A stretch of 19,091 bases of DNA. Source: Candidatus Phoenicimicrobium oleiphilum (GTDB lineage Bacteria > Atribacterota > Phoenicimicrobiia > Phoenicimicrobiales > Phoenicimicrobiaceae). Location of the stretch: NCBI GenBank assembly GCA_039638295.1, contig JBDIWJ010000037.1, forward strand, positions 1-19,091, given 5' to 3'. Below are positions 192 through 18,572 of this stretch, one piece after another. Each line of letters begins with the position of its first letter. Position 1 is the first letter of the stretch. The translations under genes were made by a program, and so were the position numbers. The notes under the pieces were generated by a model. It saw only the letters and a list, made by a program, of their open reading frames with translations. It ran no database searches and was not told the origin of the DNA.

Positions 192-1145
192 TCAAAAAAT
201 ACTAGCTATTCCTATAAAAGCCAGAATTACCCCTATAGCCCAAAATCTAATAATAATCTTCGGTTCTTTCCATCCACAAATTTCAAAATGATGATGAATT
301 GGGCTCATTTTAAATAATAATTTTTTCCTCAGTTTTACAGAAATTACTTGAAAAATCACTGATAGAGTCTCAATAACAAATACTCCGCCAATTATTAATA
401 AAAATAATTCTGTTTTAGTAAATATAGCTATTGAAGCAAGTGCCCCACCTAAGGCAAAAGAACCCACATCTCCCAAAAATACCTGGGCCGGGAAAAAATT
501 ATAGATTAAAAAACCAAGAGATGAAAAAGCAACTATCAAAGCAAAAAGGCTCATAGACCAAATATTCTGGATATAGGCAATTAGAGCAAAAATAATCATA
601 GCAATAAATATTAATCCCGTAGCCAATCCATCTAAACCATCAGTCAGATTCACTGCATTAACTGTACTAATCATTACTAAAATAGCAAAAGGAGTAAAGG
701 CTCTACTCAAATCTATACTGCTTTTTAAAAAAGGAAGATAAATTTCTGTGTCCAGGTTGGTAACTTTTTGAACGTAATATACCACTATAAGAGCAAAGGC
801 AATTTGGAGAAATAACTTTTGCCAGGTATAAAGGCCTAAGGACCTTTTCTTAAAAAGTTTTATTAAATCATCTACTAAGCCAACAGCCCCAAAACCAATA
901 GTGATAATTAATGACCACAAAATATAATTATTGTGGGGAACAAAAAATATAATAACTAATATTAAAGTAAGGATAATGACAATTCCTCCCATTGTCGGTG
1001 TGCCCATCTTATGTTGATGAAGATCTGGCCCTTCCTGACGAATCCTCTGTCCAATATTATGTTTCTTTAAATAATTGATAAAAAGTGGTGAAATAATAAG
1101 AGGTATTAAAAAAGAAACTAAAACTATTAATATCCAGTTAGTCAT
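192..1145 (-). CDS. mraY: Phospho-N-acetylmuramoyl-pentapeptide transferase
   Basis: Polytopic membrane protein with the MraY motifs KMGTPTMGG, DD, NAVNLTDGLDGL, FLGDVGS and PIHHHFE. Follows murF with an 8-bp overlap. Confidence 0.98.
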   Translation of the reverse strand: MTNWILIVLVSFLIPLIISPLFINYLKKHNIGQRIRQEGPDLHQHKMGTPTMGGIVIILTLILVIIFFVPHNNYILWSLIITIGFGAVGLVDDLIKLFKKRSLGLYTWQKLFLQIAFALIVVYYVQKVTNLDTEIYLPFLKSSIDLSRAFTPFAILVMISTVNAVNLTDGLDGLATGLIFIAMIIFALIAYIQNIWSMSLFALIVAFSSLGFLIYNFFPAQVFLGDVGSFALGGALASIAIFTKTELFLLIIGGVFVIETLSVIFQVISVKLRKKLLFKMSPIHHHFEICGWKEPKIIIRFWAIGVILAFIGIASIF

Positions 1146-2589
1146 TCTGTCCCCCCTGGGTTTGAGACTTTTTTTTATACTCTTCCTGCCAAAATTGCAA
1201 AATATCCTCCATTTGCATATCTCGTGAACCTTTTAGTAAAATAAAATCCCCGGGTTTAATTAAACTTAATAACTTTTTAGATAAATATTTCTTATCATTC
1301 TTTTCAAAGGAAAAGATCTGTTCTTTTGCCATCCCCTCATTTTTAGAAGATTGAGCAATTATTCTGCCTCCTTCACCAACAGTTATTAATGTATCAATAG
1401 ATAATTTTGCTATTTCTTTTCCAATTTCCTGGTGATAAATATTAGTTTTTTCACCTAATTCAAGCATATCTCCCAAAATGGCTATTTTTCTGCGGTTTTT
1501 GGCAACTTCTACTAAAGTTTCTAAGGCCCTTTTAACTGACAGGGGACTGGCATTATAAGAATCATTTAATACTTTAATATCATTATAAAAAGTATTTAAC
1601 TGCATATGCATATCTAAAGATTTAAAATTAGATAGTCCTTTTTCAATCGAATTTGTGCTAACTTTCAAGGCAAAAGCGGTTGCAGAAGCAGCAAGCGCAT
1701 TATAAATATTATGTATTCCTAATAAAGGAAAAAATATCTCTCTAGCTTCAGTATTTTTTATTTTCAGTGTAAATCTCATTCCACGGTCACTCACTGGGCT
1801 GATATTACCAGCCATAATATCACTTTTATTCTCAATACCAAAGGTGATTATCTTTTTACCTCTGACCATTTCCGCCATCTCCGGGAAGTAGGGATCATCA
1901 CCATTTAAAACTGCTATCCCATCCCGGTCTAATGATTGTAATAATTCAGTTTTGGCTTTAAAAATATTTTCTTTGGAACCTAATAAACCTATGTGGGCCT
2001 CTCCAATATTAGTTATTACTGCTAAATTAGGGGAAACAAAATCGGTGAGAGTTTTTATTTCACCCAGCCCTCTCATCCCCATCTCTACTACTAATATTTT
2101 ATGGGAACTATTAAGTTGCAACAGGGTAAGAGGGATTCCAATTTCATTATTGTAATTCCCGGATGTTTTTAAAAGAGGAAATTTCTGAAATAATATATGA
2201 GCAATTATTTCTTTTGTTGTGCTCTTTCCATTGCTCCCGGTTACGCAGATATTAAAAGTTTTAAATCTATTTTTATAATATTTTGACCAATTTTGCAAAG
2301 CCAATAGAGTATCTTTTACTTCTATTATAATTTTGTCTTTACCTATTTCCTTATTGTGTAATAAACTATCAACATTTTTACAAATTACTGCTCCCACTGC
2401 ACCTTTATCAAAAGCTTCTATTATAAAATTATGCCCATCAAAATGGGGCCCAATTAGGGCAAAAAATAAATCACCAGAGACTAAAGTCCTGCTATCTATA
2501 GAAATATTATTTATTATAGTATTTTGGTTACCCTGGATTAACCTACCCGAAATAGCTTCTATTAATTCTCTGACTTTATGCCCTTCCAA
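1138..2589 (-). CDS. murF: UDP-N-acetylmuramoyl-tripeptide--D-alanyl-D-alanine ligase
   Basis: IDSR, FDGH, P-loop VTGSNGKSTTKE, NNEIGIPLT, VEMGM, NDSYNASP, LGDMLELG and KGSR motifs. TTG start overlaps the murE stop. Confidence 0.97.
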   Translation of the reverse strand: MEGHKVRELIEAISGRLIQGNQNTIINNISIDSRTLVSGDLFFALIGPHFDGHNFIIEAFDKGAVGAVICKNVDSLLHNKEIGKDKIIIEVKDTLLALQNWSKYYKNRFKTFNICVTGSNGKSTTKEIIAHILFQKFPLLKTSGNYNNEIGIPLTLLQLNSSHKILVVEMGMRGLGEIKTLTDFVSPNLAVITNIGEAHIGLLGSKENIFKAKTELLQSLDRDGIAVLNGDDPYFPEMAEMVRGKKIITFGIENKSDIMAGNISPVSDRGMRFTLKIKNTEAREIFFPLLGIHNIYNALAASATAFALKVSTNSIEKGLSNFKSLDMHMQLNTFYNDIKVLNDSYNASPLSVKRALETLVEVAKNRRKIAILGDMLELGEKTNIYHQEIGKEIAKLSIDTLITVGEGGRIIAQSSKNEGMAKEQIFSFEKNDKKYLSKKLLSLIKPGDFILLKGSRDMQMEDILQFWQEEYKKKSQTQGGQND

Positions 2590-4069
2590 TTTTTTCTCTC
2601 TCCATTAATATTTTTTTCACTACTTCTTCATCATTATGATGAATTATTTTATTATGATAAATTTGCTCATTCTCAGGACCTTTCCCGGCTATCAAAACTA
2701 TATCACCCTGGTTGGCTTTTTCCAGGGCATATTTAATCGCTTTCACTCGGTCAACAATAATAACATAGTTTTTATCTGTCTTTTTCACTCCTTCTTCAAT
2801 CTCCTGAGCAATTTTTAAAGGATCTTCGCTTTTGGGGTTATCTGCAGTTATGATGACATAGTCACTGTATGTGCCTATGACTTCTCCAATGATGGCTCTT
2901 ACCTTGTTATATTTCTCTCCACCATGTCCAAATACTGTAATAATATGATGTTCGGCAAAAGTACGTAAATTCCGCAGTATATTCCCTAATCCGTGATAAT
3001 TGTGGGCAAAATCTACAATGATAGTATAATTTTGTCCAAAATCGAGTAATTTGTATCTACCTGGAGCTCCGTTAAATTTACTCAAAGCCTTAGAAATTTT
3101 CTCAAGAGAAATACCTTGAGTAATAGCCACTGCTATAGCAGCTAAAGCATTATATATGTTATATTTTCCGCTAAAATTTAAAAATATTTTAACTTTGCCT
3201 GAAGGGGTTTCCGCAATAAACGAAGAATTTTGTAAGTTAATTTCTATGTTTGTTGCTCTAACCTCTGCTCTTTCTTTTATACCATAGGTAATTAAATTAA
3301 CTCTATTGCAATCAATAAATTCCTGACTATGTTCTTCATCAATATTAATTACTGCAAACTTCTTTGAATCTTCTTTACTGCTGTCATTTAAATGTAAGAA
3401 TAATTTTTTCTTCGCTTCTAAATAATTAGTAAAGTTTTTATGAATTTCAAAATGTTCATTACTGATATTAGTAAAAATAGCCACATCAAAGTCGCATCCT
3501 ACTATTCGAGATAGCGCTAACGCATGAGAAGATACTTCCATTACTGCATACTCATTCTTTTGCTCAACCATTTCTTTAAGGCTTTTTTGTAGGTCAATTG
3601 ATTCCATAGTAGTCATATAAGAGGTATTAATATTATCACCAATTATGTTTTGAGCTGTACTTAACAATCCGGTTTTATACCCTGCTTCACAAAAAATAGC
3701 CCTTAACATATAAGCTATTGTAGTTTTACCGTTTGTGCCAGTAACTCCAATTAATTTTAGTTTTCGGGAAGGAAATCCATAAAACTGATTAGCCAAAAGA
3801 GATAAGGCCCGACGAGTGTCAGCTACTTTTATAATAGTAATGTCTGGCCGTGGTGGACAAACTTCTTGTTCTACCACTAAAGCAATAGCACCTTTATTAA
3901 CAGCTTCATCAATAAAGCAATGTCCATCAAAAACAAAACCTTTTATACATACAAATAAATAACCTCTCGTTACCTTTCGAGAGTTATGACTAATTCCTTT
4001 TATATCTAAATTTAAATCACCATTAATTTCTTTAATCTCTAAACTGCTGATTAATTCACTCAGCTTCAT
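2576..4069 (-). CDS. murE: MurE-family UDP-MurNAc-dipeptide--amino acid ligase with divergent specificity motifs (497 aa from the ATG at 4069)
   Basis: P-loop GVTGTNGKTT, MEVSSHAL, PGR, DFAH, DNPK and AGKG motifs, in the dcw position between ftsI and murF. The ATG at 4069 (MKLSELI) has an AGAGG RBS at 4081-4085 and is preferred over the ORF-track start at 4165, which runs through repeats. Confidence 0.93.
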   Translation of the reverse strand: MKLSELISSLEIKEINGDLNLDIKGISHNSRKVTRGYLFVCIKGFVFDGHCFIDEAVNKGAIALVVEQEVCPPRPDITIIKVADTRRALSLLANQFYGFPSRKLKLIGVTGTNGKTTIAYMLRAIFCEAGYKTGLLSTAQNIIGDNINTSYMTTMESIDLQKSLKEMVEQKNEYAVMEVSSHALALSRIVGCDFDVAIFTNISNEHFEIHKNFTNYLEAKKKLFLHLNDSSKEDSKKFAVINIDEEHSQEFIDCNRVNLITYGIKERAEVRATNIEINLQNSSFIAETPSGKVKIFLNFSGKYNIYNALAAIAVAITQGISLEKISKALSKFNGAPGRYKLLDFGQNYTIIVDFAHNYHGLGNILRNLRTFAEHHIITVFGHGGEKYNKVRAIIGEVIGTYSDYVIITADNPKSEDPLKIAQEIEEGVKKTDKNYVIIVDRVKAIKYALEKANQGDIVLIAGKGPENEQIYHNKIIHHNDEEVVKKILMEREKIGRA

Positions 4070-4397
4070 AGAATAAATTACCTCTAATTTTTTATATAGT
4101 ATATCGTATTGCGTATTGCGTTTCAATTTAAAACTTAAACCGAAAAGCGAAAAATCATAAATCAAAATTCAAAACCTATTAAATCTTTTAATTTACCGGT
4201 TATCCGGTTACTACTGACTTTTATCCTTTATTTTCTTAACTAGTGCTCTGATAAGTCAGGTAACTAACTAATCAACTAATGATGTAATGTATAACATATA
4301 ATAAGTAGTGGGTAATAGGTACCTGTTTTTATAATTTCAGAAATCTAATCTTATTACTCATTACATATTACTTGTTACTTTATTTTACACGAGATAC
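4070..4397. repeat. Long ftsI-murE spacer made of short periodic repeats
   Basis: CGTATTG at 4105 and 4112 (partial at 4119). RTAR at 4284, 4291, 4298, 4305 and 4312 faces TTAC at 4354, 4361, 4368 and 4375 (period 7, inverted arms). aggtaactaactaa at 4258-4271 is identical to 142-155. Confidence 0.7.
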
Positions 4398-6083
4398 TCA
4401 CTGATTGGGAGGAATTGATAAATAAGGAAGAACCTTGGATGCAATTTCTTGAAAAACTGGAGCTGCGACTATTCCCCCGTAATAGCTACCTTGAGGCTCA
4501 TCTAATAAAACCAGAATAGCTATTTGTGGATTCTCAACAGGAGCATAACCTACAAATAGAGCACTATATTTGTTTTTAGAATATTTTCCGGTGGAAAAAT
4601 CAAATTTTTGGGCAGTTCCAGTTTTGCCCGCTACTCTATACCCGGTAATTTTAGCACCTTTACCAGTTCCATCAATTACAACTTGTTCTAATATTTTAGT
4701 CATAGTTAAGGCTGTTTCAGCAGATACCACCTGCCTTATGGGTTTTGGCTTAAATACTTTAACTCTATTTTGTTTAGAATCTACAATTTCTTTGACTATC
4801 ATTGGTTTCATTAGTGTCCCTCTATTGGCAATAGCAGAAATAGCCATTATTAATTGAATCGGTGTTACAGCAATTTCCTGGCCTATAGATAAAGATGCTA
4901 ATGAAATTTTTGACCAATCTTTTGTACTTCTCACCAGGCCACCTACTTCCCCTGGTAAGTTTATCTCGGTAAGTGACCCGAAACCAAATCTTCTTATCGA
5001 TTTCTCAAAAACTTTTTCTTCTAATCTAGTTCCAACTTGAATAACTCCGATGTTACAGGAATTCTTCACTATACCGATAAGGTCTTGTGAACCATGTTGG
5101 TGTATATCATGAAAAATATTCCCATTATATTTTATCCATCCCTTACAATAGAACTCATCATCTAATTTTACTACTCCCTCTTCTAAAGCAGTGGCTATAG
5201 TGATTACTTTAAAAGTTGAACCAGGTTCGTAGATATCAGTAATTGCCCTGTTTCTCCATATACCTTGAGAAAATCTATCAAAATAATTGGGGTCATAAGA
5301 AGGCCTTACGGCTATAGCTAATATTTCACCAGTTTTAGGCATTATTACAATTGCAACGCCAGTTTTCGCTTTATATTGGCAAAAAGCTTTATCCAGGGCT
5401 TCTTCAGTAATATATTGTATTACCTCATCAATTGTTAAAACAATCGAATTACCATCTTGATAATTTGTAAGCCTCTTAATACTAAGAGGAATTTTACCTC
5501 CAGAGGCATCTTTCTCTAAAATTGCTAAACCGGGTAAACCCTTTAATTCCTTATCAAAAAATAATTCCAATCCCTCCAATCCCTGGTTATCAATTCCTAC
5601 AAAACCTAATAGATTAGAAGCCAGGTTTTTTTTAGGATAATACCTTTTATTTTCGTCCAGAAAATCCAGGCCCGGCAAATTTAATTTTTTTACTTCTTCG
5701 ACTTCTATATCATTTAATTTCCTTTTTATCCAGGTAAAAGAATTTTTTTGGTTTAATTTATTAAATACTTCTCGTGTTTCCAAACTTAAAACAGAAGAAA
5801 GTAGTTGGGCAGTTTTATGAGGTTCTTGTATCTGATGGGGAATAGCAAATAAAGATTTGGTATTAACGTTTACCGCTAATTTTTTTAAATTTCTATCGTA
5901 GATATTACCTCGCTCTCCTTCAATAGAAAACGAAGTTAGATGTTCTTGCTGAGCAAGTTCTTTATATTTATTACTTTGAATAATCTGGATGTTGTATAAT
6001 CTATAAATTAATAAAAAATAAAAAATAATAGACAATATAAATAATAAAGTAATCCGTTCTTTCTTTTCTTTGACCAGCAACAA
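4398..6083 (-). CDS. ftsI: Class B penicillin-binding protein (FtsI/SpoVD-like transpeptidase), no PASTA domain
   Basis: N-terminal TM helix, RGxIYDRN and RYYP pedestal motifs, and catalytic motifs SxxK (EPGSTFK), SxN (SCN) and KTG (KTGTAQK). TTG start with an AGGTGG RBS; dcw position. Confidence 0.93.
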   Translation of the reverse strand: MLLVKEKKERITLLFILSIIFYFLLIYRLYNIQIIQSNKYKELAQQEHLTSFSIEGERGNIYDRNLKKLAVNVNTKSLFAIPHQIQEPHKTAQLLSSVLSLETREVFNKLNQKNSFTWIKRKLNDIEVEEVKKLNLPGLDFLDENKRYYPKKNLASNLLGFVGIDNQGLEGLELFFDKELKGLPGLAILEKDASGGKIPLSIKRLTNYQDGNSIVLTIDEVIQYITEEALDKAFCQYKAKTGVAIVIMPKTGEILAIAVRPSYDPNYFDRFSQGIWRNRAITDIYEPGSTFKVITIATALEEGVVKLDDEFYCKGWIKYNGNIFHDIHQHGSQDLIGIVKNSCNIGVIQVGTRLEEKVFEKSIRRFGFGSLTEINLPGEVGGLVRSTKDWSKISLASLSIGQEIAVTPIQLIMAISAIANRGTLMKPMIVKEIVDSKQNRVKVFKPKPIRQVVSAETALTMTKILEQVVIDGTGKGAKITGYRVAGKTGTAQKFDFSTGKYSKNKYSALFVGYAPVENPQIAILVLLDEPQGSYYGGIVAAPVFQEIASKVLPYLSIPPNQ

Positions 6084-6119
6084 CTATTCCCACCTTTTGT
6101 TCTCATTGCTACAAGTATA

Positions 6120-6572
6120 TTATTTTAGCACAGATAAAATCAATTCGTTTACTTTTTTTAAGTCAAAACTAGCCCAAAAATATTTTTCTCCTTCATAATT
6201 GTTGCTAATTACCTCTATATTTCCCCCTGGATTAATTTTTGAAGCAGGAAGTGAAGCAATGAAATTAACTTCTTTGGGTCTTATCATTCCTAAGTGGTTA
6301 CAGGCAATTTCTTCAACTCTATCCAGGGAAGAAAGAGTCTCTACCATAAGCTCAAGTTTTTTGTTCTCTTCTACTAATTTTATTTTGTAATTTTCTAATT
6401 CTATTAATTTATACCCTAATTCCGTTAGAGCGATGGTGTTAGAAATATAAAAAACAGTTATAGAGGTGATAAAAAACATTAATAGTAAAAATAATCCACA
6501 ACTAAAAAATATATTTTTATCATTACAATAATTATTATTATATTTTACTTCTTTTCTTCTTTTTCTTGCCAT
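6120..6572 (-). CDS. ftsL: Cell division protein FtsL-like (bitopic, coiled coil)
   Basis: Basic N-terminus, one TM helix, coiled coil ending LSSLDRVEEIAxxxLGM. Lies between rsmH and ftsI. Confidence 0.8.
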   Translation of the reverse strand: MARKRRKEVKYNNNYCNDKNIFFSCGLFLLLMFFITSITVFYISNTIALTELGYKLIELENYKIKLVEENKKLELMVETLSSLDRVEEIACNHLGMIRPKEVNFIASLPASKINPGGNIEVISNNYEGEKYFWASFDLKKVNELILSVLK

Positions 6573-6692
6573 CTTCTCGTCCCTTTATTATATTTAGGGT
6601 TTTTGCTATACAATCTTGCAAAAATCCATTCCTTTTTTAAACTTGTACCCGGGAAACATGTGCTCGTGAAAACGAGTAACGGGCAAAAGAAT

Positions 6693-7640
6693 TTACCTTT
6701 TAGCATTGGAATTTTTCAAAATTTCGACTTTTTCTGCCACTCTCAATTTAGCGCTTCTGGCTCCAGGATTTCTTTTTATCTCCTCTTGAGAGGCTCTAAT
6801 CGGCTTTTTGGTTATAATTTTTAATCCATAATTCTGTTGTGCTATTTTTTCTTTTTCCGCTTTTTTAAAGACATTTTTGACAATCCTATCTTCTAATGAA
6901 TGATAGGAAATTACGCAAATTCTGCCTTTGTCTTCTAAAACCTTAATCGCTTGATTTAAACTTTTTTCCAAAACATCAAGTTCTTGATTTACCTCTATTC
7001 TTATTGCCTGAAAAACTCTGGTAGCTGGATGGATTCTCCATCTTCCTCTCTTTTTAGCTTTTGGAAGAGCTCTTATAACCAGATCAGCTAATTGTTTGGT
7101 AGTATTTATAGGATTCCTCTGTCGCTCTAAAACAATCAGTCGGGCAATTCTTTTTGAAAAGCGTTCTTCTCCATATTTTTCAAATATTCTGATTAGTTCT
7201 TCCTCTGTATAATTATTAATCAATGTACTTGCATTAAACTTTTGGGTTAGGTCCATCCGCATATCTAAATGACCATCTTCTCTAAAGCTAAATCCTCTTT
7301 CCCTCTCTCTTAGTTGGTGAGAGGACACTCCTAAATCAAATAGTATTCCCGATACTGCGTTCACCTTTAGGTCGGATATAATTTCTTCTAAATTTTTAAA
7401 ATTTTCTTTAACCAATATAGCTCTATCAAGATAATTGTTTAACTCTTTTCTTGCTGTTTTAATTGCCTCTATATCCTGATCTATACCAATCAATAAGCCA
7501 TCAGGATATATTCTTTTTAAAATAGCTTTTGAGTGCCCCCCACCTCCTAAGGTACAATCAATATATACACCACCTCCCTTTTTGGAAATTAAGTAGTGTA
7601 AAACCTCTTTTAAGAGTACGGGTATATGAAAAGAATTCAT
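6693..7640 (-). CDS. rsmH: 16S rRNA m4C1402 methyltransferase RsmH (MraW)
   Basis: HIPVLL, DCTLGGGGHS, DLGVSS, LDMRMD, HPATRVFQAIRIEVNQEL, ISYHSLEDRIVK and ARSAKLR motifs. Confidence 0.98.
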   Translation of the reverse strand: MNSFHIPVLLKEVLHYLISKKGGGVYIDCTLGGGGHSKAILKRIYPDGLLIGIDQDIEAIKTARKELNNYLDRAILVKENFKNLEEIISDLKVNAVSGILFDLGVSSHQLRERERGFSFREDGHLDMRMDLTQKFNASTLINNYTEEELIRIFEKYGEERFSKRIARLIVLERQRNPINTTKQLADLVIRALPKAKKRGRWRIHPATRVFQAIRIEVNQELDVLEKSLNQAIKVLEDKGRICVISYHSLEDRIVKNVFKKAEKEKIAQQNYGLKIITKKPIRASQEEIKRNPGARSAKLRVAEKVEILKNSNAKR

Positions 7641-7646
7641 TATAAA

Positions 7647-8078
7647 TTAACCTTCTTGCTCATATAGCCTTTCAGCAATATCTTCATATGAGCCTTCAAT
7701 TTCTTTAAAGTATCCTTGCCAGACATCCTTACTCCAGATCTCCAATCTATCTAAAACCCCGATAACCATAACTTCTCGTTTGATTTGCGCATAATCTCTT
7801 AAGTATTTCATAATGACAACTCTACCTTGACTATCTAATGAACAAGTGGTTGCTCGAGAAAAAAGTATTCTTTTAAATGCTCGGGCATCTCTTTGACCTA
7901 AGGGAAGTAATTTTAATTTTTCGGATAGACTTTTCCATTCTTCAAGGGGATATACAAAAAGGCATACATCAAGACCAAAAGTGATTATAAAATTATCCCC
8001 CAAAGATTCTCGATATCTTGCCGGCACAATTAATCTTCCCTTTTCATCAACTGTATGTTCATATTGCCCTAAAAACAT
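7647..8078 (-). CDS. mraZ: Division/cell wall cluster transcriptional repressor MraZ
   Basis: 143 aa with MFLGQY, two DxxGR motifs (DEKGR, DSQGR) and EIW. First gene of the dcw cluster; AAAGGGGG RBS upstream. Confidence 0.98.
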   Translation of the reverse strand: MFLGQYEHTVDEKGRLIVPARYRESLGDNFIITFGLDVCLFVYPLEEWKSLSEKLKLLPLGQRDARAFKRILFSRATTCSLDSQGRVVIMKYLRDYAQIKREVMVIGVLDRLEIWSKDVWQGYFKEIEGSYEDIAERLYEQEG

Positions 8079-8420: not shown

Positions 8421-8880
8421 CTTATAAGTAGACCATAAGCCGAGTTCTGTTCCCTTATAAGTTAGTTGTTAGTGAATAGTCGTTAGTCGTTAGTGTAAAA
8501 TACAAGTTGCAAGATGCGAATTTAACCATCTAACCAAGTAACTAACTAATAAGGGTGGTAATCATCTATCTGGGATGTAAGTTACCTTACACCTCTTGCG
8601 ACCTACCCGAAGATTCAGCGGGCCACCACAACTCTTCCTATTTGGTCTTGCTCCAAGTGGGGTTTACTAAGCTTGTTAGTCACCTAACAACTGGTAGGCT
8701 CTTACCCTGCCTTTTCACCTTTACCCAGCGCACAAATTTGATTGCCGGGCTGTGTATTTTCTGTAGCACTTTCCTTGAGGTCACCCTCACTGGGGGTTAC
8801 CCAGCACTTTGCCCTGCGGAGCTCGGACTTTCCTCGAAAGAAATTATTCTTCTTCCGCGATTACCTGGTCTACTTATAAG
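8421..8880 (-). ncRNA. rnpB: RNase P RNA (bacterial type A) with expanded P19
   Basis: The minus strand has GAGGAAAGTCCGAGCTC near the 5' end and ACAGAACTCGGCTTA near the 3' end. P1 is a 15-bp inverted repeat (8421-8435 / 8866-8880), P2 is ggtaatc/gattacc, and P9, P14 and P18 are GNRA-capped. Mature ends are uncertain by a few nt. Confidence 0.97.
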
Positions 8881-9693: not shown

Positions 9694-9733
9694 AAAAAAA
9701 ACCTTACTTCTTACAGGGAAGAAGTAAGGTTTT
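9694..9733 (-). terminator. Intrinsic terminator downstream of the tRNA gene
   Basis: Inverted repeat aaaaccttacttctt (9698-9712) / aagaagtaaggtttt (9719-9733) followed by a U-run on the minus strand. Confidence 0.8.
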
Positions 9734-9797: not shown

Positions 9798-9873
9798 TGG
9801 TGGGCCCACCTGGATTCGAACCAGGGACCGACCGGTTATGAGCCGGTTGCTCTACCAGCTGAGCTATGGGCCC
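9798..9873 (-). tRNA. tRNA with CAT anticodon, most likely tRNA-Ile2 (lysidine-modified, reads AUA)
   Basis: 76-nt cloverleaf GGGCCCATAGCTCAG...CTCATAA...GGTTCGAATCC...GGGCCCACCA with encoded CCA. G1-C72 is paired and the anticodon stem lacks three consecutive G-C pairs, so it is not an initiator. The sequence resembles Ile2 more than elongator Met. Confidence 0.9.
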
Positions 9874-9970: not shown

Positions 9971-11002
9971 TTATTTTAGATGCAGGCTTTTTAGTTGTCC
10001 ACAAGCAGCAGATATATCACCCCCCCTGGATACTCTTATAGTAGTAGGAATTTTTTTAGCTACCAATTTTTCCCTAAAGGATTTAATTTGAGAGATATCA
10101 GTCGCCTGCAACAAAGAACCGGGAGCAGGATTAAAAGTAATTAGATTTATCTTGAAATTAAACCCTCCGATTAGTTTAGCTAATTTATCAGCATAATTAA
10201 GAGAATCATTTATTCCTTTAATTAAAATATATTCGAAAGTAATCTGCCTATTTGTTTTTTTTACATAATCTCTGCATACTTCTATTAAATCATATAAAGG
10301 ATATTTATTATTAACTGGCATTAAATAAGACCTTAATTTATCTTCGGGGGCATGAAGAGATACTGATAATTCTACCTGCCAGTTACACTCTTGCAACTTT
10401 TTTATTGCGGGTATTATCCCACAGGTAGAAATAGTTATCTTTCTTGCTCCAATATTAAAGGCTTCTTTAGAATTTAATATGTAAATTGCTTTTATGACAT
10501 TATCATAATTATCTAAAGGTTCTCCAATCCCCATAAATACAATATTGTGAGGATTAGATTTCAACTTCTTCTTAATAAATAAAACCTGATTTAAAATTTC
10601 ACTAACCAGGAGGTTTCTGGTAAATCCTTTCTTACCACTTTCACAAAATAAGCAATTATATTTACATCCGACTTGAGAGGAAATACATTCAGTGATCCTC
10701 CCTTTATTAGAAAATATCAGAACACTTTCTATTACATTCCCATCTTCTAATTTGAACAGGTATTTTTCAGTTCCGTCTTTAGATTTTACAAATTTTAATA
10801 ACCCTATATTCCGTAGATAAAAGTTGTAGTGAAGAAATTTTCTAAATGCTACGGGAAGATCGGTCATATCATCAAAATTTTCTATACATTTTTTATAAAC
10901 CCAATGAAATAGTTGGGTAGCCCTAAATCTTTTTTCTCCTGAATTTTCAAATTCTTCTTTTAATTCATCTAAAGTAAAATTTTTAATATCTTTCTTCTTC
11001 AT
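9971..11002 (-). CDS. rlmN: Dual-specificity 23S rRNA m2A2503 / tRNA m2A37 radical SAM methyltransferase
   Basis: FRATQLFHW, DGTEKYLF, CISSQVGC-x3-C-x2-C, MGIGEPL, SLHA, FEY and AACGQL motifs. Confidence 0.95.
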   Translation of the reverse strand: MKKKDIKNFTLDELKEEFENSGEKRFRATQLFHWVYKKCIENFDDMTDLPVAFRKFLHYNFYLRNIGLLKFVKSKDGTEKYLFKLEDGNVIESVLIFSNKGRITECISSQVGCKYNCLFCESGKKGFTRNLLVSEILNQVLFIKKKLKSNPHNIVFMGIGEPLDNYDNVIKAIYILNSKEAFNIGARKITISTCGIIPAIKKLQECNWQVELSVSLHAPEDKLRSYLMPVNNKYPLYDLIEVCRDYVKKTNRQITFEYILIKGINDSLNYADKLAKLIGGFNFKINLITFNPAPGSLLQATDISQIKSFREKLVAKKIPTTIRVSRGGDISAACGQLKSLHLK

Positions 11003-11016
11003 AGATTTATTTTCTT

Positions 11017-12066
11017 CTATTTTTTAATTTCTCCCAATATATTTCGGGCAAACTCTTCTGCCCTTTTTTCTATCCCTTTAACTTTCCTGATTGCACCCGG
11101 GTCATTAGCAATGGCCATCAAGGCAAAATAGGGAGGCAATCTAAATCCTTTATTAATATTTAAAGCCCCTAATAATTGCTCGGCTACACAATCACTACCT
11201 GAATTTCCTGAAACAATGATGGAAAACAGACTTTTATCCCAGAATCTCACTCTCTTGTAAAGTACAGTCAACCTATTTATTACTGCCATAAGCTTTGCAG
11301 ATACAGCATCATTATAATTAGGGCATAACCAGATTGTACAATCTGCATCCTCAATCGCAGGAAGAATTTCTTTTACCATTATTCCTCCATAAAAACAACT
11401 TTCTTCTTCGCTATAATGAATACAGGTTTTATAAGAACATCCCCTGCAGTCTACTACGGTACCATTTTCTACATGTAATTCCCTTAAATTTTTTGCTCTC
11501 AAATTATCCTTAACCATCCTCCAGAGCATCAGAGTATTGGAAGTTTTAAATGAACTGGAATGAAGGACTAATATTTTGGGATTTTTAATTAAAGTAAGCT
11601 TTTCCGCCATCAATTTATCAACTAATTCTTTAGCTTGTTTTTGATAAATTTCTTTAAGGGATAAATCATAAATTTTTTGCCAGGTAATAAAATTGCTGAG
11701 ATTATAAGTTGCCTCTACAACTGGGTGGCCTGGGAATCTACACCCCATCAGATTGGCCAAAAAAATTATCTTCTGAGCAGAATTCTTAGTAAATAACTCA
11801 CTGGGGCTTTGAATTATAATTACTGCCCTTGAACCAAGAAGAGAATCATTTCCTCTTTTTTGCAATTTTAAAAGTATTTCAAATAAAGGAATATTAAATC
11901 CACATCCATCTAACTCTATAGCAAAAACTATCTTCTTATTTCTTAAGTCCGTGATATCTTCAAATGTTTTAATAACTATCTGATTATAACCCGCTGTAGC
12001 TTTTTTAATTATATCGCTAAAACTATTTGATATTTTTCCTGGCATTATTAAATAAATAGTGTCCAT
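11017..12066 (-). CDS. Double-length flavodoxin-fold protein with a C-terminal iron-sulfur flavoprotein / NADPH-FMN reductase-like domain
   Basis: The C-terminal half has SSSFKTSNT (FMN phosphate loop-like), C207-x2-C-x4-C-x8-C224 and PNYNDAVSAKLMAVINR. The N-terminal half looks like a degenerate flavodoxin fold. Confidence 0.8.
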   Translation of the reverse strand: MDTIYLIMPGKISNSFSDIIKKATAGYNQIVIKTFEDITDLRNKKIVFAIELDGCGFNIPLFEILLKLQKRGNDSLLGSRAVIIIQSPSELFTKNSAQKIIFLANLMGCRFPGHPVVEATYNLSNFITWQKIYDLSLKEIYQKQAKELVDKLMAEKLTLIKNPKILVLHSSSFKTSNTLMLWRMVKDNLRAKNLRELHVENGTVVDCRGCSYKTCIHYSEEESCFYGGIMVKEILPAIEDADCTIWLCPNYNDAVSAKLMAVINRLTVLYKRVRFWDKSLFSIIVSGNSGSDCVAEQLLGALNINKGFRLPPYFALMAIANDPGAIRKVKGIEKRAEEFARNILGEIKK

Positions 12067-12123
12067 ATAATAATTCCCTTACCCACTTTTACGGGCACAA
12101 GTTTCTTTTTAAATTTTTAACTA

Positions 12124-13368
12124 TTATAAAATATTGCCTAACTCTTTATAACTCTTCTTTATTTTTTCAAATAAAACATCCGGCATATCCAATCTTTCAA
12201 CTTCAATTCCAGAATTATGCAATCTGTTTTTTGCTCCCATATATACTCCTCCCATAAAGGTTGCACTGTAATGCCACTTCCCTCTGATAGTGGCAATAAG
12301 CGGTAAACAGGCTGAAGATAAGGCAGGAGCAATATAAGGTTTATAGCCAGTCTTTCTTATTTCTAAATTTGCTTTTAGGGTCTGATTGGTAAGCATCTCA
12401 GAAAGTTTTTCATCGTACTTTTTTATACTATTTGCAATTATTAAACCTTTGCCATGAGGGCCAAATGCTCTACCTTCCTGGCAATAGTTAACAGTTTCAG
12501 GATTTTGCTTAGAATAATATATTGCTCGGGCATGCATAACCCCCAAACCATATCCCCTTATCTGTTCTGCCGCTAATCCCTTAAAATCAAATTTTCCATT
12601 TTTATTTTTATTACTGACTAAAAAAGCATATTTACACAATAAATCTACCGGGTCCGAAATCACTGCAAATATTCCCTTAAATGATTTTTCCCGAGCCTTT
12701 TCAGCATAATCAGAAATTATTTTAGAGTTTCCTTCAAATTGAGTCATTCTTACATCCTTTGCCTCTTCACCTACTGGAGGGACACCTACTGTGGCGCAAA
12801 AAACAAACAAATCACAATCAAAAATCTCTTTTTCCTTCAAAGCATATACTTCAGGATGTAACTGAACTGCAGAGGGAGCAAATATCTGGTTTGCTTCTAA
12901 TTCCCATCTTTTTACAAGTTTGGTATTTTTATCATATATTCCGATACTCTTGATATACTTTCCACCTAATAATCTTAATCCAGCAAGAAGAGTTCCTCCT
13001 ACATCTCCTAGTCCTACAATATTAATCTTCCAACAAACAGGAAATTGATAAGTTATTACATCTTGCCAATCAGGATATTCAGTATTAAGCGAACTTACTC
13101 TTTTTTCTTTTATTCTTTCTTTAAGCCATAAAGGCAAATTATAATCAATCTTCCTAGATTTTTGCAGTAAATGAATTCCCTCTTCTTTTAAAAAGATAAG
13201 AGAGGAATCGGTAACACTAAAACTTCTTCTTGATTTTAAAGGGTTTATCCGGGTAAGGGCATAGATTATACCTTTACTTTCTTTTGCTTCGCTTTCAGAT
13301 ATTCTATTTAATTCATTGTATTCCGATTGGGAAATTAGTATCTTATCTTTTAGTTTATAGTAGAACAT
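12124..13368 (-). CDS. Atypical lactate/malate dehydrogenase-fold NAD-binding protein with an N-terminal extension of about 110 aa
   Basis: INIVGLGDVGG Rossmann motif, IYD, R207, SDPVD (cf. SNPVD), MHAR (cf. DSAR) and GPHG (cf. GEHG). Confidence 0.8.
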   Translation of the reverse strand: MFYYKLKDKILISQSEYNELNRISESEAKESKGIIYALTRINPLKSRRSFSVTDSSLIFLKEEGIHLLQKSRKIDYNLPLWLKERIKEKRVSSLNTEYPDWQDVITYQFPVCWKINIVGLGDVGGTLLAGLRLLGGKYIKSIGIYDKNTKLVKRWELEANQIFAPSAVQLHPEVYALKEKEIFDCDLFVFCATVGVPPVGEEAKDVRMTQFEGNSKIISDYAEKAREKSFKGIFAVISDPVDLLCKYAFLVSNKNKNGKFDFKGLAAEQIRGYGLGVMHARAIYYSKQNPETVNYCQEGRAFGPHGKGLIIANSIKKYDEKLSEMLTNQTLKANLEIRKTGYKPYIAPALSSACLPLIATIRGKWHYSATFMGGVYMGAKNRLHNSGIEVERLDMPDVLFEKIKKSYKELGNIL

Positions 13369-13429
13369 CTTTTATTTTCCTCTCTTCACCTAAACTCTCT
13401 CCTGTGATTGTGCCCTCTAATATTATTAC

Positions 13430-16400
13430 TTAATTTCTCCTATCTACCATTTCTTCCATTCGTTCTAAAAGCTCAAGATCATTTCTTAAATAATGAGAGG
13501 GACTAAGATTTAAATTATACTCCATATTTTCTCCCTGATCAGGATAGCGAGGATAAATAATTACTTCCCCTAAATGATTAAGAGTTAACTTTCTTTGTTG
13601 AATTGATTGATATTCATCTTCAAGGGCTTCTAAAATAGTCAAGGCACTTTCCATACAAACCTTTGAAAAGTTATAAATAATTTTTCCGGAAACATTTTTT
13701 ATAAATGAAGGGAAGGTATAGGGCAAGATTAAATTAATAGATCGAACCAAATTCCCTTGAGACCTGCTCTTTCGCTTTATTGCATCTCCACCAATAAAAG
13801 GATATAATTCACTTTCGTTAAACCATAATCTGAGATTAGGAATAAAATGAACAGAGTCAACATCTCTATTTAAAAGGGAAGCAATTTCTTTTCCACTTCC
13901 AGACAATGCTCCCAAAATTATTTTTTTGATTTTGATATCATACTTTTGGAAAAGAGGTTCTAAGGTCTTTATTCTATACCCCTTATGTAGATAATCATCA
14001 ATTAGAATTACCGGCATATTAAACGAACGAATAACTTTCACCTGGTTTTCCAAACTCATATAATTAGGGAAAGCACCAATTTCAAAACTTTTCATATCAG
14101 GAGAAAATATTTTTTCAGTATGAAGAGATTTAGTTACTGTATTGGGAACCACCATTTTGTGCAGTATCTTTCCAAAGGGTACACAAATTGAATCTCCCAA
14201 AACTCGAGGAGTCAAAGGTATTGTTGGAACATTATTTAACTTGCATATTTTTTTAACAATAGTCTGATTGATTAAATTTATGTTAAACGGCAGTACAATA
14301 TTCCCAGAATAAAAGGAAGTTAATGATTTTAATAATTTTTTCCGAGATTTAATAATTGATTTTTTAATATTTGAATTTTGGTTAAAGGGTTCTTTTATTA
14401 CGCTCTCCGTTTCCAGATTAATTATGCAGGGCTTACTCATATCTACTACAAATACCGGGTTATCCTCATCACTAAAGGGTAAGCGATAAAATCCCATCAA
14501 CTCTAAATTCTCATATAGAGAATTTAAACTATAATTATTCAGAATATTCCTGAAAATTGTATAACTGTAATCTTTTTCAATGCAAAAAGAAAGGGTCTCG
14601 GTAAGAATAATCTGTTCAAGATTTTCAAGTTCTGATTTATTCTCGACTTCATTTATGGTATAAATTCCATCAATAATCATTATGCGACCAACTGCATTTT
14701 CTCTAATATACTCAGAAATTAAATTATTGTTAAACTCCTGGAAAAGAGAGCTTGAACGAACCCAATGAAAAGCTGAAAATCCTAATAATATTCCATTATG
14801 CTCAAGATCACGCAAAAGTAAAAATCTGGGATTTAATTTATGAGAAAACTCATTAAACTTTTTAAATATATCTTCCCGATTATATTGAGAAAATATTTTA
14901 TGGTAAAGTTCTTCTATTAAATCTGAGGTAATATTTTCAATTATCTGCACATCAATAGAAATCGTCTGCATTATACTCTTATATTGTGGTTCTCTTTGAT
15001 ATAAATTATTCTCATAAATATATTTTTGGACTAAAGGATCGATAAATTTGGAAATATCCCGATTTTCATCGATATTGTTTCTTATTTGGCTTGAGCTTAT
15101 CTCTTCATATCGGGGGGTAAGGTTAAGGTTAATAATCTCTTTTTCAATCTTTTTAATAGCCTCTTCAATATTCTTTTCTTTCTTATTGGTAATATTTAAG
15201 GTTCCTCTATCAAATATAATATGAGGAAAAGTATGTATAGAATTTTCTGTCTTTTCCTTTTGATAAGCAGAGGCATTTAATACTACATCACTGCCCACTA
15301 CCATATAAACTTCAGAGGAAGGAAAATTACTTCTTAAGGCTTGTAAATCATTCGGGTTGGCAATATTAACAGGCAAATCTTCAGGATATAAATATACCTT
15401 AAGTTCATCAGCAATAGAAATATTTATTATATTCTTCCTGAAAAGATGGGGTTGGGTTCTTTTAGACCAGGAAAATTCATCAACTGCTAAATATACTTCA
15501 AAACCGAGTGCCTCTATCTTCTTAACTATTTCTTTGTGGCTTAAAGAAAAAGGATCAAACGACCCCGGGAAAAAAGCTATCTTTGATGGAGCCTTAAGGT
15601 TTATACTACCTTTAAAGAAATTGTAATCTGAAATAAATTTATACATATAGTTAAGTCCATTACAGTTGCTTAAAAACATCAATCCTTCCTTACTAACTGG
15701 AGCAAGTAGGGTTAGAATTTTTTTGGCAATTAGCTGAAATATATGGTTTTTATCCTCTAAACTGAGATGTTTTGAACCAAATATTTCTCTTCCAATAACT
15801 CTAAAAGCTACTTGTTTTACTTGTAAACTGTAATGTACAAAACCATTTAGAAGAATGCCTATCATTTTATTAAGTTTATTTTCGTATGATTTTCTACTTT
15901 CTTGAAATCTTTCTTTATATTTTGGATAATTAGCAATAGCTATCCCAATAGTTCTAAGTAATAAGGAACTTAATTTGGGATCTGATTGTTTTATCTTCTC
16001 AATTAAATCATCAATTAGCTCCTCTAACTCATCAGGAGGGAGAAAAATTATTAATTGACCTAAATAATAAGGGATATATTTGGTAAATTGATAATCTTCC
16101 ATCTCTAAAGCCCTCAATAGCTCAATGGCAATATCATTTCGTTGTTCAAATGATAGACTGGGCATCAAATTCACCAGGGTCTGTCCGGCTAAATTTCTAA
16201 TACTTTCCACGCCACTCACTTTTAAGATATTACAAAAATGTAAAGCGGTGTAGATTTCTTCTTGCTTAGTCTTTAATGTATGTTCTAACAAAAGTTCTAT
16301 TTGTATTTTTTTAACTATCCAGCTCGTTGAAGTTTTGAGATTACTTAAAAATATATACTGTATTTTTTCCAGGTCTTTCTGATAAAATTCTCTATATTCT

Positions 16401-18355
16401 TCTATAATTTTGCTGTCTAAGTCTAATAATTCAACTATCTTCATCTTCAAAAAATTTTCTGCTGGAATTGTTGAAGCTGAAACATTATCAGTAAATATTT
16501 CTTTCAAAGGATTCAGGATTTTTGATTTTTTACTAAGCCGGGATATTAAACTCAAGGTTGTCTCCAGAGCTAAAAGTCTCAAATTAATATTTTCCTTTTT
16601 TAACATTTCTATAACATAATTAAATAGCCTCTGTGAAGATTTTTTATCAGAAGATATGGGGATATATTTAGCTGTTTTTATTAAACATAATTGAACATCT
16701 TCATTAACATATAAATCCTTTTTGTAATGTCTTAATATAATTTTTCTATAATGACTGGCCTGATTATCTCGACTGTTTGCAAAAAGAGAAGAAATCATTA
16801 TATCAGTACTATTTATGATTCGATATTGGTGAAGGGGGATTTTTTTGTGGTCTGGCTGTAAAAAATACTTTAAGTATTTATTCAATAAATCATAACTGGT
16901 AATAGCTGGAGGTTCAAGATTAACGTCCAGGGGAATCTCCTTGCGATAATCTTCATCAAAGGTAGCAATTAATCTACCGATAAGTTTTGCACTTCTTCTC
17001 CTTATTTCATCTTCAGGATGAGTTAATTGTTCATATAAATATCGCAAGGTAATCATTTTCTGTCTTTGGGTTAAGTAAGTGGAATATTCATTAAATATTT
17101 GTAAATATTCTCGTAGATTGTTCCAATCTTTTTCACTTCGAGCTAACTCCAACAGTGAATTTAGAGAAGATTCGTTTCGTAGTTCATGCATTAAGTGTAT
17201 ATTGTGTTCTATAGAAAGAAATTTTATATTTTGTATAACTTCCTGGCTATGCATAAGTGAATAATAAGGATTTCTTCTTTTCTCAGGTAGATATATATCT
17301 TTATGCTCTAAATCAACATTTACTCCTAAATTTATCATATAATTTTCAAAATCCTTTAATTTTGCATATACTCGGCCATATCTTCTCCTTTTTCTTTCAT
17401 CAACATTATCCAGTTTGCTCAAAATTATTTGAAAAGAATCTTTAAGAGTAAAAATCTTCATCTTCTCTGTATTAGAATTACTATTTTCGTTTTTTACCCG
17501 AAAGTCAGAATAGATTAAAATAAGAGATTCCAGGGGTAAATTTTCTAATTCTAAATCCCAAACGGAATGGTTAACCGCAATATGTCCGATATAAGGAATA
17601 TTATGCTTTTTAAACCACATATCAGTATAGTAATAATGTAGATAAGGCGTTCTCTTAATCTCAATATTTTTACATCCATATTTCCCTATATCGTGTCCCG
17701 CTGCCGCCCCTGAAACTCTCGCTAAATCAACTGGAAGACCCCTACTATATAATTGTCGACCAATAAATAAGGCAATCCAATTAACCCCACATATATGGTC
17801 AAGGGTATTATAATTTAAAACTTCCTGACTCAGTTTCATCATCTCATAGAGGTATTCATCGTTAAATGCCTTTACAAATCTTTTATATTCAGCAGGATTT
17901 TCTAATTTAGCTTTTTCTTCAGCAGTTAGAAAATTTAGGGGGTATTTACTTTGAAAAGTAGAATCATCAGAAGATTTTTGGAACTCTGAAATCACTCTTA
18001 AAACTTCTAAATAAAACAAGAAAGTCTTACGACAATCAACAGAGATATTCTCAAAAGAAAGTTCTACTGCATCAGGGAAAGATTTAGATAGAGCAAATTG
18101 ATATACTTTATAAAGCCAATTATGGGAATTATGTTTCTTATCGATTGTAGCAAGTATACTCTGACATAAAGCATATACCGCCTGGCAGCTATAATCTTTA
18201 TTTTCTACTATATACAATAATTTATTCGAAAACTCAGGGCTTTCGATATATTTTTTGGCAAACTCTTTCTCTGAAGAAGTAATATCCAATATATCTGGAT
18301 TCATAAACCTTTTTGATATTTCTTTAGATAAATCTTCAACCAGAGATTTAATCAT
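13430..18355 (-). CDS. 1641-aa multidomain protein: HD domain, HEAT-like helical region, NadD-like nucleotidyltransferase, GNAT-like region, type I PRTase-like domain
   Basis: H187...H221-D222...D284; GSFDPFSLSH, GSD, ISSSQIR and YIYENNLY (aa about 925-1119); VILIDDYLHKG (aa 1449-1459). Uninterrupted ORF with an AGAGG RBS. Confidence 0.85.
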   Translation of the reverse strand: MIKSLVEDLSKEISKRFMNPDILDITSSEKEFAKKYIESPEFSNKLLYIVENKDYSCQAVYALCQSILATIDKKHNSHNWLYKVYQFALSKSFPDAVELSFENISVDCRKTFLFYLEVLRVISEFQKSSDDSTFQSKYPLNFLTAEEKAKLENPAEYKRFVKAFNDEYLYEMMKLSQEVLNYNTLDHICGVNWIALFIGRQLYSRGLPVDLARVSGAAAGHDIGKYGCKNIEIKRTPYLHYYYTDMWFKKHNIPYIGHIAVNHSVWDLELENLPLESLILIYSDFRVKNENSNSNTEKMKIFTLKDSFQIILSKLDNVDERKRRRYGRVYAKLKDFENYMINLGVNVDLEHKDIYLPEKRRNPYYSLMHSQEVIQNIKFLSIEHNIHLMHELRNESSLNSLLELARSEKDWNNLREYLQIFNEYSTYLTQRQKMITLRYLYEQLTHPEDEIRRRSAKLIGRLIATFDEDYRKEIPLDVNLEPPAITSYDLLNKYLKYFLQPDHKKIPLHQYRIINSTDIMISSLFANSRDNQASHYRKIILRHYKKDLYVNEDVQLCLIKTAKYIPISSDKKSSQRLFNYVIEMLKKENINLRLLALETTLSLISRLSKKSKILNPLKEIFTDNVSASTIPAENFLKMKIVELLDLDSKIIEEYREFYQKDLEKIQYIFLSNLKTSTSWIVKKIQIELLLEHTLKTKQEEIYTALHFCNILKVSGVESIRNLAGQTLVNLMPSLSFEQRNDIAIELLRALEMEDYQFTKYIPYYLGQLIIFLPPDELEELIDDLIEKIKQSDPKLSSLLLRTIGIAIANYPKYKERFQESRKSYENKLNKMIGILLNGFVHYSLQVKQVAFRVIGREIFGSKHLSLEDKNHIFQLIAKKILTLLAPVSKEGLMFLSNCNGLNYMYKFISDYNFFKGSINLKAPSKIAFFPGSFDPFSLSHKEIVKKIEALGFEVYLAVDEFSWSKRTQPHLFRKNIINISIADELKVYLYPEDLPVNIANPNDLQALRSNFPSSEVYMVVGSDVVLNASAYQKEKTENSIHTFPHIIFDRGTLNITNKKEKNIEEAIKKIEKEIINLNLTPRYEEISSSQIRNNIDENRDISKFIDPLVQKYIYENNLYQREPQYKSIMQTISIDVQIIENITSDLIEELYHKIFSQYNREDIFKKFNEFSHKLNPRFLLLRDLEHNGILLGFSAFHWVRSSSLFQEFNNNLISEYIRENAVGRIMIIDGIYTINEVENKSELENLEQIILTETLSFCIEKDYSYTIFRNILNNYSLNSLYENLELMGFYRLPFSDEDNPVFVVDMSKPCIINLETESVIKEPFNQNSNIKKSIIKSRKKLLKSLTSFYSGNIVLPFNINLINQTIVKKICKLNNVPTIPLTPRVLGDSICVPFGKILHKMVVPNTVTKSLHTEKIFSPDMKSFEIGAFPNYMSLENQVKVIRSFNMPVILIDDYLHKGYRIKTLEPLFQKYDIKIKKIILGALSGSGKEIASLLNRDVDSVHFIPNLRLWFNESELYPFIGGDAIKRKSRSQGNLVRSINLILPYTFPSFIKNVSGKIIYNFSKVCMESALTILEALEDEYQSIQQRKLTLNHLGEVIIYPRYPDQGENMEYNLNLSPSHYLRNDLELLERMEEMVDRRN

Positions 18356-18502
18356 TATAAGAACCTCTATCTTTTTATATTTAAAATTGTATTTTTAAAA
18401 TATTATCTTTCTAATTTATATTATAACTAAAAATCATTAAATTTTACAATGTAGTTATATCTTCTATAATTATAACCCAAAGGTAAACAAAATGTTAATT
18501 TA

Positions 18503-18572
18503 GTAGCTCTACATATCATAATGGTAGCTCTTTTATATATCATAATTGTAGGGGCACGATGTATCGTGCCCC
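18503..18572 (+). repeat. GTAG-footed REP-like palindrome preceded by two imperfect tandem copies of a GTAG-starting unit
   Basis: GTAG at 18548, then ggggcacgat-gt-atcgtgcccc (18551-18572). gtagctct...atatcataat occurs at 18503-18522 and 18524-18546. Confidence 0.65.

Follow-up and report, generated by a model that had tools for sequence, protein, structure and literature searches.

The whole stretch of DNA analyzed here, 19,091 nucleotides of Candidatus Phoenicimicrobium oleiphilum (contig JBDIWJ010000037.1, assembly GCA_039638295.1) and called the window, carries three genes, named A, B and C, which form a conserved unit. Many anaerobes keep the three genes adjacent and in unchanged order. 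Judged by sequence, the trio would represent a new architecture lying outside the nearest family of each protein, and its function is what we infer below. The plausible, if not quite probable, function that we favor is that A makes and breaks a dinucleotide resembling nicotinamide adenine dinucleotide (NAD), which B would use and C would recycle, all chemical steps being deduced. The closest named relatives of the window are Atribacterota, and the GC content is about 30% across the window without any step at the cassette. The genes and the predicted domains of A are positioned as follows.

13430 to 18355, minus strand: gene A, 1641 amino acids; N-terminal helices, HD domain, HEAT solenoid, NadD-like nucleotidyltransferase (NTase), degenerate GNAT domain and phosphoribosyltransferase (PRT)-like domain
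12124 to 13368, minus strand: gene B, 414 amino acids; dehydrogenase of the lactate/malate dehydrogenase (LDH/MDH) fold with a poorly conserved N-terminal extension of 110 residues
11017 to 12066, minus strand: gene C, 349 amino acids; weakly conserved N-domain and an FMN-reductase/flavodoxin domain
17321 to 17905, minus strand: A residues 151-345, predicted HD phosphohydrolase; H187, H221-D222, H240, H263, D284
15611 to 17320, minus strand: A residues 346-915, predicted HEAT-repeat solenoid, from the AlphaFold2 model, Foldseek and Pfam HEAT
14975 to 15610, minus strand: A residues 916-1127, predicted NadD-like adenylyltransferase of the HIGH family; FDPFSLSH, DEFSWSK, GSDV..NASAY, ISS..IR
14441 to 14974, minus strand: A residues 1128-1305, predicted GNAT fold with unconserved coenzyme A (CoA)-pyrophosphate loop, from VIA-align
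13433 to 14440, minus strand: A residues 1306-1641, type I phosphoribosyltransferase-like; CVPFG, PNTVTK.LHTEK, VILIDD..KGYR

The order A-B-C is kept in 44 of the 59 loci having A, and another 13 stop at a contig edge before the order becomes visible. The remaining two are a locus with a truncated A and other DNA behind it (L006) and a locus without C (L020). All three genes were found in 59 of 60 additional 20-kb stretches picked around B; these were fetched from about 110 B matches, selected as those on long contigs. A sample of 121 genomes was taken from the order of G035 (Acidaminobacter), which we take to be Peptostreptococcales. B is present in 77 of them and the HD region of A in 76; all 76 A genomes fall among the 77 with B, and A occurs in none of the 44 without B. 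B was also detected in 26 of 31 relatives of the window's genome and in 8 of 251 genomes sampled across the phylum of G035. The median gaps between A and B and between B and C are 7 and -4 bp (90 loci). No recurring fourth gene was found beside the cassette, the maximum being 11 of 100 loci and 6 of 40 lineages. The original prediction, which described the three genes as a candidate pathway, had set beforehand that homologs failing to co-occur or cluster in other genomes would speak against it; A, B and C were decisively found together across two phyla. The tree distances of the three proteins correlate at 0.75-0.85 over 89 loci, no control gene being compared. With midpoint rooting, the copies from Atribacterota make up a single clade within the Clostridia in the A and C trees, not in the B tree. 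Two complete A-B-C cassettes per genome were observed in G372 and G396 (L121, L126-L128).

In the window, the gene arrangement is as had been described. All three genes lie on the minus strand, with 61 bp between A and B, 57 bp between B and C, and 418 bp between nfu and A. Shine-Dalgarno-like sequences (AGAGGT, GAGAGG and AAGGGA) precede the three ATG codons, and minus-strand terminator-like matches in the gaps between the three genes numbered zero. Among the contigs from four RNA runs (contigs only), coverage of X1 was even over genes and spacers, as DNA would give.

Protein A was aligned with 93 full-length homologs of 1533-1667 amino acids, and AlphaFold2 models were built for residues 30-914 (mean predicted local distance difference test score 88.8, predicted template modeling score 0.85) and 915-1636 (88.2 and 0.88). 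The HD, NTase and PRT motifs are near-invariant across the homologs. The HD region is the most conserved part, with H187, H221, D222, H240, H263 and D284 present in 93 of 93. It matched Pfam HD in 15 of 36 members, and all four matches of its PDB profile search were HD-type proteins (best E 0.015). Its closest NCBIfam match is the HD part of the DVU_1551-family NTP transferase (NF045665; 32 of 36 members), also an NTase fused to an HD domain; it is a short HD stretch that matches (best E 3e-6; 16 bits for the window protein, cut-off 315), and the NTase class is different. The metal ligand order of YqeK, H..HD..H..H..D, is found in the HD domain and aligns in order with the YqeK of the same genome. 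A match to TIGR00488 (YqeK) was absent in the 36 members and at the A locus in 5 genomes, and hhalign of the HD domain with YqeK gave a probability of 1.6. The following residues 346-915 are all-helical in the model; Foldseek placed karyopherin, CAND1 and PP2A-A among the top matches, and Pfam HEAT was matched in 20 of 36 members.

Whether compared by Foldseek, VIA-align or profile, NadD comes closest to the predicted NTase domain of A. All Foldseek matches listed were NadD/NMNAT (TIGR00482, PF01467), which shares the HIGH-family adenylyltransferase fold. VIA-align gave a Z of 17.6 to NadD 5llt, with a root-mean-square deviation of 2.6 over 184 residues, and a Z of 12.6 to PPAT 4nah. The hhalign probability with the genome's own NadD was 96, and the score against TIGR00482 (51.9) stays below the curated cut-off of 112.45 bits. 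H940, K965, G1021, D1023, Y1031 and R1092 are invariant among the homologs, and Y1031 aligns with the Trp of NadD. In place of HxGH stands (S/T)-L-(S/G)-H, its H940 being kept in 93 of 93, and ISS.xIR is also conserved. The deviation is mild, since the Vibrio NadD-like protein 3h05 likewise reads SLGH.

Residues 1128-1305 adopt a GNAT fold in the model (VIA-align Z 14.1, deviation 2.8 over 147 residues to 1wwz). Only 5 of 178 columns are at least 95% conserved, and the Q/RxxGxG/A acetyl-CoA loop region is variable with no conserved Gly. For residues 1306-1641, the matches are weak but agree in pointing to a type I PRTase. Of 16 matches in the PDB profile search, 15 were to type I PRTases or phosphoribosyl pyrophosphate (PRPP) synthetase, each lying over the PRPP motif, with a best E of 0.006. 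PF00156 was matched, below cut-off, in 13 of 36 members, and hhalign against 11 local PRT groups gave a best probability of 24. In this domain 38 of 336 columns are at least 95% conserved. The DD and the G of the hhhhDDxxxTGxT motif are kept (93, 91 and 93 of 93), both Thr positions being K and R, and the secondary structure of the model is compatible with a PRT fold. In the ESM Atlas, the clusters found were unnamed; 14% of their members carried PF00156 and 16% carried HD.

Protein B aligned to LDH with an hhalign probability of 98, and its residues were counted in 122 diverse homologs. In LDH/MDH the catalytic residues are Arg109, Asp168, Arg171 and His195, and position 102 is the specificity residue, according to PMC4109310. 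Compared with the superfamily members treated there (L-HicDH and LDH-like MDH), B shows the same fold and keeps the equivalents of Arg109, Arg171 and His195 (R207, R281 and H305 in 118 of 120, 121 of 122 and 116 of 121) along with the adenine-ribose Asp (D146, 107 of 120). Like HicDH, B has extra loop residues inserted between positions 102 and 109, and a loop longer by three residues was noted across the homologs. A YxAPA-like segment recalls Pro250 of LDH-like MDHs in a gap-free register, the hhalign alignment being ambiguous there. B differs from LDH/MDH in the change of Asn140 to Asp (D239, 119 of 122), an Asp in the glycine-rich loop, the lack of Gln or Arg at position 102 (P/E/A/K/D) and an optional N-terminal extension. 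Ser163 is replaced by F/Y/L. Asp168, which even the HicDHs keep according to PMC4109310, is absent; its place falls on a Met (M278, 119 of 122) or on the variable position next to it. Lacking Asp168 and Gln/Arg102, B is neither an LDH nor an MDH by the residue criteria of that source. Its score is 32 against an LDH/MDH-family cut-off of 304. The N-terminal extension is short in 14 of 89 loci, and no clear accompanying change was found in A or C.

Protein C matches PF03358 (FMN_red; E 8.8e-18, above cut-off), and its profile search against the PDB gave no clear match (best E 0.39). C207, C210, C215 and C224 are present in 91 of 91 sequences with the spacing CX2CX4CX8C, and they likely hold a predicted [4Fe-4S] cluster. 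The iron-sulfur flavoprotein Isf similarly combines an FMN-reductase domain of the PF03358 family with a compact four-cysteine motif, given in PMC3164229 as CX2CX2CX5-7C. None of the 91 sequences shows this spacing, and C differs further in an extra N-domain of 160 residues. No internal duplication was detected in C. The deviation from family motifs claimed for all three proteins is real but uneven, that of the NTase being mild.

Canonical nadD, yqeK and NAD kinase genes lie elsewhere in all five cassette genomes tested, and NAPRTase in four. As these ordinary genes coexist, the cassette does not replace NAD synthesis, and replacement of NadD, YqeK, NAD kinase or PncB was rejected. The intact ordinary pathway, together with the family-wide changes of the obligate partner B around the pyridine and catalytic site, leads us to propose that A both synthesizes and degrades an NAD-like dinucleotide, which would serve B and be recycled by C. 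The presence of PRT-like, NadD-like and HD domains in one chain follows the logic of NAD salvage with proofreading, for which PMC9426524 provides a YqeK-NadD precedent of turnover. The PRT-like domain would join a group X to PRPP, or bind an X-ribonucleotide. The NadD-like domain would then adenylylate X-ribose-5-phosphate to X-ADP-ribose, with Y1031 in place of the ring-stacking Trp of NadD. The HD domain may cleave the pyrophosphate for product turnover or proofreading, as YqeK does for NadD. The HEAT solenoid would hold the domains, and probably B and C too, the degenerate GNAT domain being a structural or sensor element. B would move hydride between the cofactor and a carboxylate substrate (a 2-oxo or 2-hydroxy acid) held by the Arg109, Arg171 and His195 equivalents. 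C would pass electrons between ferredoxin-type donors and the cofactor through its putative [4Fe-4S] cluster and FMN. The non-standard pyridine-nucleotide-like cofactor suggested earlier is thus supported in part: the NadD-closest fold, the PRT-like and HD domains, the changes in B and the separate NAD genes fit it, and the chemistry is what we infer. It is doubtful whether an NAD-like cofactor of their own, built and destroyed by A, used by B and linked to ferredoxin by C, sustains a private redox circuit in those Clostridia and Atribacterota that ferment amino acids.

Among the nearest known systems is the NadD-YqeK pair or fusion (PMC9426524), in which an adenylyltransferase is likewise joined to an HD hydrolase with the same metal-ligand order. 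A differs in that its HD domain is not YqeK and comes first, and in its extra HEAT, GNAT and PRT-like domains. The cassette differs in its two dedicated redox partners and in the coexistence of canonical nadD and yqeK.

Several points weigh against a cofactor made by A for B and recycled by C. C was not found in the cassette genomes G028 (98% complete) and G406, so C can be lost. The PRT assignment rests on weak sequence matches over one motif (best E 0.006), and a PRT fold was not among the 50 VIA rows listed in a whole-model search dominated by NadD and GNAT. The Thr that binds the 5'-phosphate in PRTases is Arg in A, and to our knowledge, no type I PRTase is known to take pyridines as substrates. 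The cofactor of B may be plain NAD(H), and without Asp168 its catalysis could be weak or lacking. In 8 of the 121 genomes there is a further A unaccompanied by a further B, six of the copies being motif-intact and near panG-panB, most of them beside an APH kinase; A can therefore persist in another context. Finally, a regulated switch would suit the 570-residue HEAT scaffold, and opposing activities that are always fused, no less than a linear pathway.

In such a switch, A would be writer and eraser: the NTase would adenylylate a target such as B, C or a redox cofactor, from which the HD domain would remove AMP, and the GNAT-like and PRT-like domains would sense metabolites, for instance acyl-CoA or PRPP. 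This is possible, although we regard it with doubt. The opposing activities are fused in all 93 full-length homologs, a HEAT scaffold is typical of protein binding, the CoA loop of the GNAT domain is degenerate, and the lack of a shared upstream operator fits constitutive expression with control at the protein level. The logic is the same as that of GlnD or RelA/SpoT, which also fuse synthetic and HD hydrolytic domains with candidate sensor domains; their transferase is of the Pol-beta type, whereas that of A is of the HIGH type, and A has no ACT domains. Against a switch, the NTase is close to the small-molecule enzyme NadD, including the nucleotide-binding Lys and the ring-stacking aromatic, and the catalytic-loop residues of the PRT-like domain are conserved as in an enzyme. 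We also know of no HIGH-family protein adenylylase of NadD type.

Distribution of traits was compared in the 121-genome sample, where the relatedness of the genomes makes the statistics overstated. GrdA was detected in 62 of the 77 genomes with the cassette and in 20 of the 44 without it, and the glycine reductase link was rejected as not strict. KamA (72 of 77 against 19 of 44) and KamD (61 of 77 against 18 of 44) follow the same direction; the lysine fermentation link was rejected, KamA being present in 4 of 29 cassette genomes of a second set (34 searched, 5 without B). The associations of panB (61 of 77 against 17 of 44) and panC (58 of 77 against 21 of 44) are not strict. Genomes with the cassette less often have the transhydrogenase subunit NfnA (10 of 77 against 23 of 44), a pattern confounded by kinship, and G032 and G033 have both.

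The rarity of NfnA speaks for a role in NAD(P)(H) damage control, where A would cleave and rebuild damaged dinucleotides and B and C would remove adducts or wrong reduced isomers. The NadD-YqeK precedent (PMC9426524) fits this role, as do neighboring genes for NAD(P)HX repair, NfnA and glutamate dehydrogenase (3, 5 and 4 of 40 lineages). We consider it quite unlikely, as these neighbor counts are low, kinship confounds the NfnA pattern, canonical nadD and yqeK are already present in all five genomes tested, and the HD domain of A is not YqeK. The NAD(P)HX repair gene (nnr) adjoins the cassette in Eubacterium brachy-like loci and in a second Atribacterota family (L049, L136, L156-L158).

The six motif-intact second copies of A (L198-L200 and L202-L204, in G296, G318, G338, G378, G390 and G402) have neither B nor C beside them. 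They form one clade with support 1.0 and 70-94% identity, with small HD changes in L199 and L200. The only panB of each genome lies within about 8 kb of the second A; panG stands beside panB in five of six fetched stretches, the pair being separated from panC. An APH-family kinase adjoins the second A in four of six, often as an overlapping gene. Two deeply diverged paralogs were also noted (L197:7693-12489 and L201:8002-12369), in which the NTase His and Lys are replaced (FSLGQ, FTRGQ; WRR) and the HD domain is mostly kept; that of L197 lies behind a pur operon and faces an APH kinase. According to PMC4572677, DUF2520 proteins are PanG ketopantoate reductases. With B beside the main A and PanG beside the second A, A sits with a 2-oxo-acid reductase in both contexts.

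The context of the second copies is hinting at pantoate/CoA chemistry. A might adenylylate or recycle a phosphorylated hydroxy acid or a pantetheine-type compound, or sense CoA, with B as a 2-oxo-acid reductase whose place next to the second A is taken by PanG. PPAT being the second-closest family of the NTase speaks for this, in addition to the proximity of panB, the APH kinase beside four copies and the diverged L197, and the identity of DUF2520. We hold it to be unlikely. The six copies make one clade and hence one event, panC is retained elsewhere in all six genomes, by which a replacement of PanC was rejected, and the panB and panC associations are loose. None of panG, true panB or APH was found near the 100 main loci. 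The window's genome (G000, 91% complete) has panB, but no panC, panG or APH match with the queries used; NAPRTase likewise gave no match. The products of LDH-fold enzymes are also L-hydroxy acids, and pantoate is D.

Two further features lie upstream of A.

18420 to 18449, minus strand: sigma70-like promoter match TTGTAA-18-TATAAT, 65 bp upstream of A, a candidate promoter
18548 to 18571, plus strand: GTAG-led palindrome, presumably of REP type, in the nfu-A spacer and outside the A-B-C system

The promoter match is weak alone, the scan of the window having given 107 sites against a chance expectation of 90.7. Over 93 homologous loci, a TATAAT-type -10 box was the only recurring upstream word, which suggests that A-B-C is a housekeeping unit. 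Operators of Rex, CodY, CcpA, sigma54, Fur, PerR, NiaR, NrtR and LexA, searched upstream with consensus sequences, were each seen in at most 8 of the 93 loci; only CodY rose above shuffles (3 loci, shuffle maximum 2). No riboswitch was found in the window. The absence of PerR, Fur and Rex sites above shuffles argues against an oxygen or redox stress role, in which an Isf-like C would reduce O2 or H2O2 and A would make a nucleotide alarm signal. C does resemble iron-sulfur flavoproteins tied to oxidative stress in anaerobes (PMC3164229); its cysteine spacing is unlike the Isf motif, no stress genes recur as neighbors, and we judge this role highly improbable.

The upstream Nfu-type carrier had been proposed as supplier of the Fe-S cluster. 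Of 26 Atribacterota-like loci, 12 have it in the vicinity of A, as do none of 33 other loci or 60 further stretches, and the partnership was rejected as local synteny. The hairpin in the nfu-A spacer, earlier read as terminator-like, proved to be a dispersed repeat and not a specific terminator, with 44 exact-pattern matches in the genome and none for the reversed control. The GTAG-led palindrome family is densest on contig C2 of the window's genome (11 matches). The rlmN gene, which begins 14 bp after gene C in the window, was rejected as a fourth gene, the link being confined to Atribacterota family f1. Anti-phage defence was rejected (PADLOC 0 of 7 proteins), and no phage match was found. 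Mobility was also rejected; the one 'plasmid' match was a 2.6-Mb record and no true plasmid.

No study of the A-B-C cassette was found in the literature, subscription papers and supplements being outside the coverage. In databases, A goes by the name 'cytidyltransferase' or NadD, and B by 'lactate dehydrogenase'. No LDH-fold gene other than B was found in three of the five genomes tested, and lactate metabolism may be wrongly inferred from B. About two thirds of the genomes sampled from a single clostridial order carry the cassette, as do most of the sampled relatives of the window's genome; among its oral and gut carriers are Eubacterium brachy and ASF356, a strain from the mouse gut. With type strains in culture and invariant residues to target, the cassette is open to direct experimental testing. 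If true, a new dinucleotide cofactor or a nucleotidylation switch would extend the core biochemistry of anaerobes, and a natural pyridine-nucleotide-like cofactor of an orthogonal kind could find use as a redox tool.

Beyond the cassette, rlmN occupies 9971-11002 of the window and is followed by a tRNA with CAT anticodon (9798-9873) and then a strong terminator-like hairpin (9698-9733). An RNase P class A RNA gene lies on the minus strand at 8421-8876, between a zinc-ribbon gene and mraZ; a plus-strand open reading frame of 123 amino acids overlying it is probably spurious. By sequence inspection, 192-8078 holds an ordinary division and cell-wall cluster, whose genes we take to be mraZ, rsmH, ftsL-like, ftsI, murE, murF and mraY.

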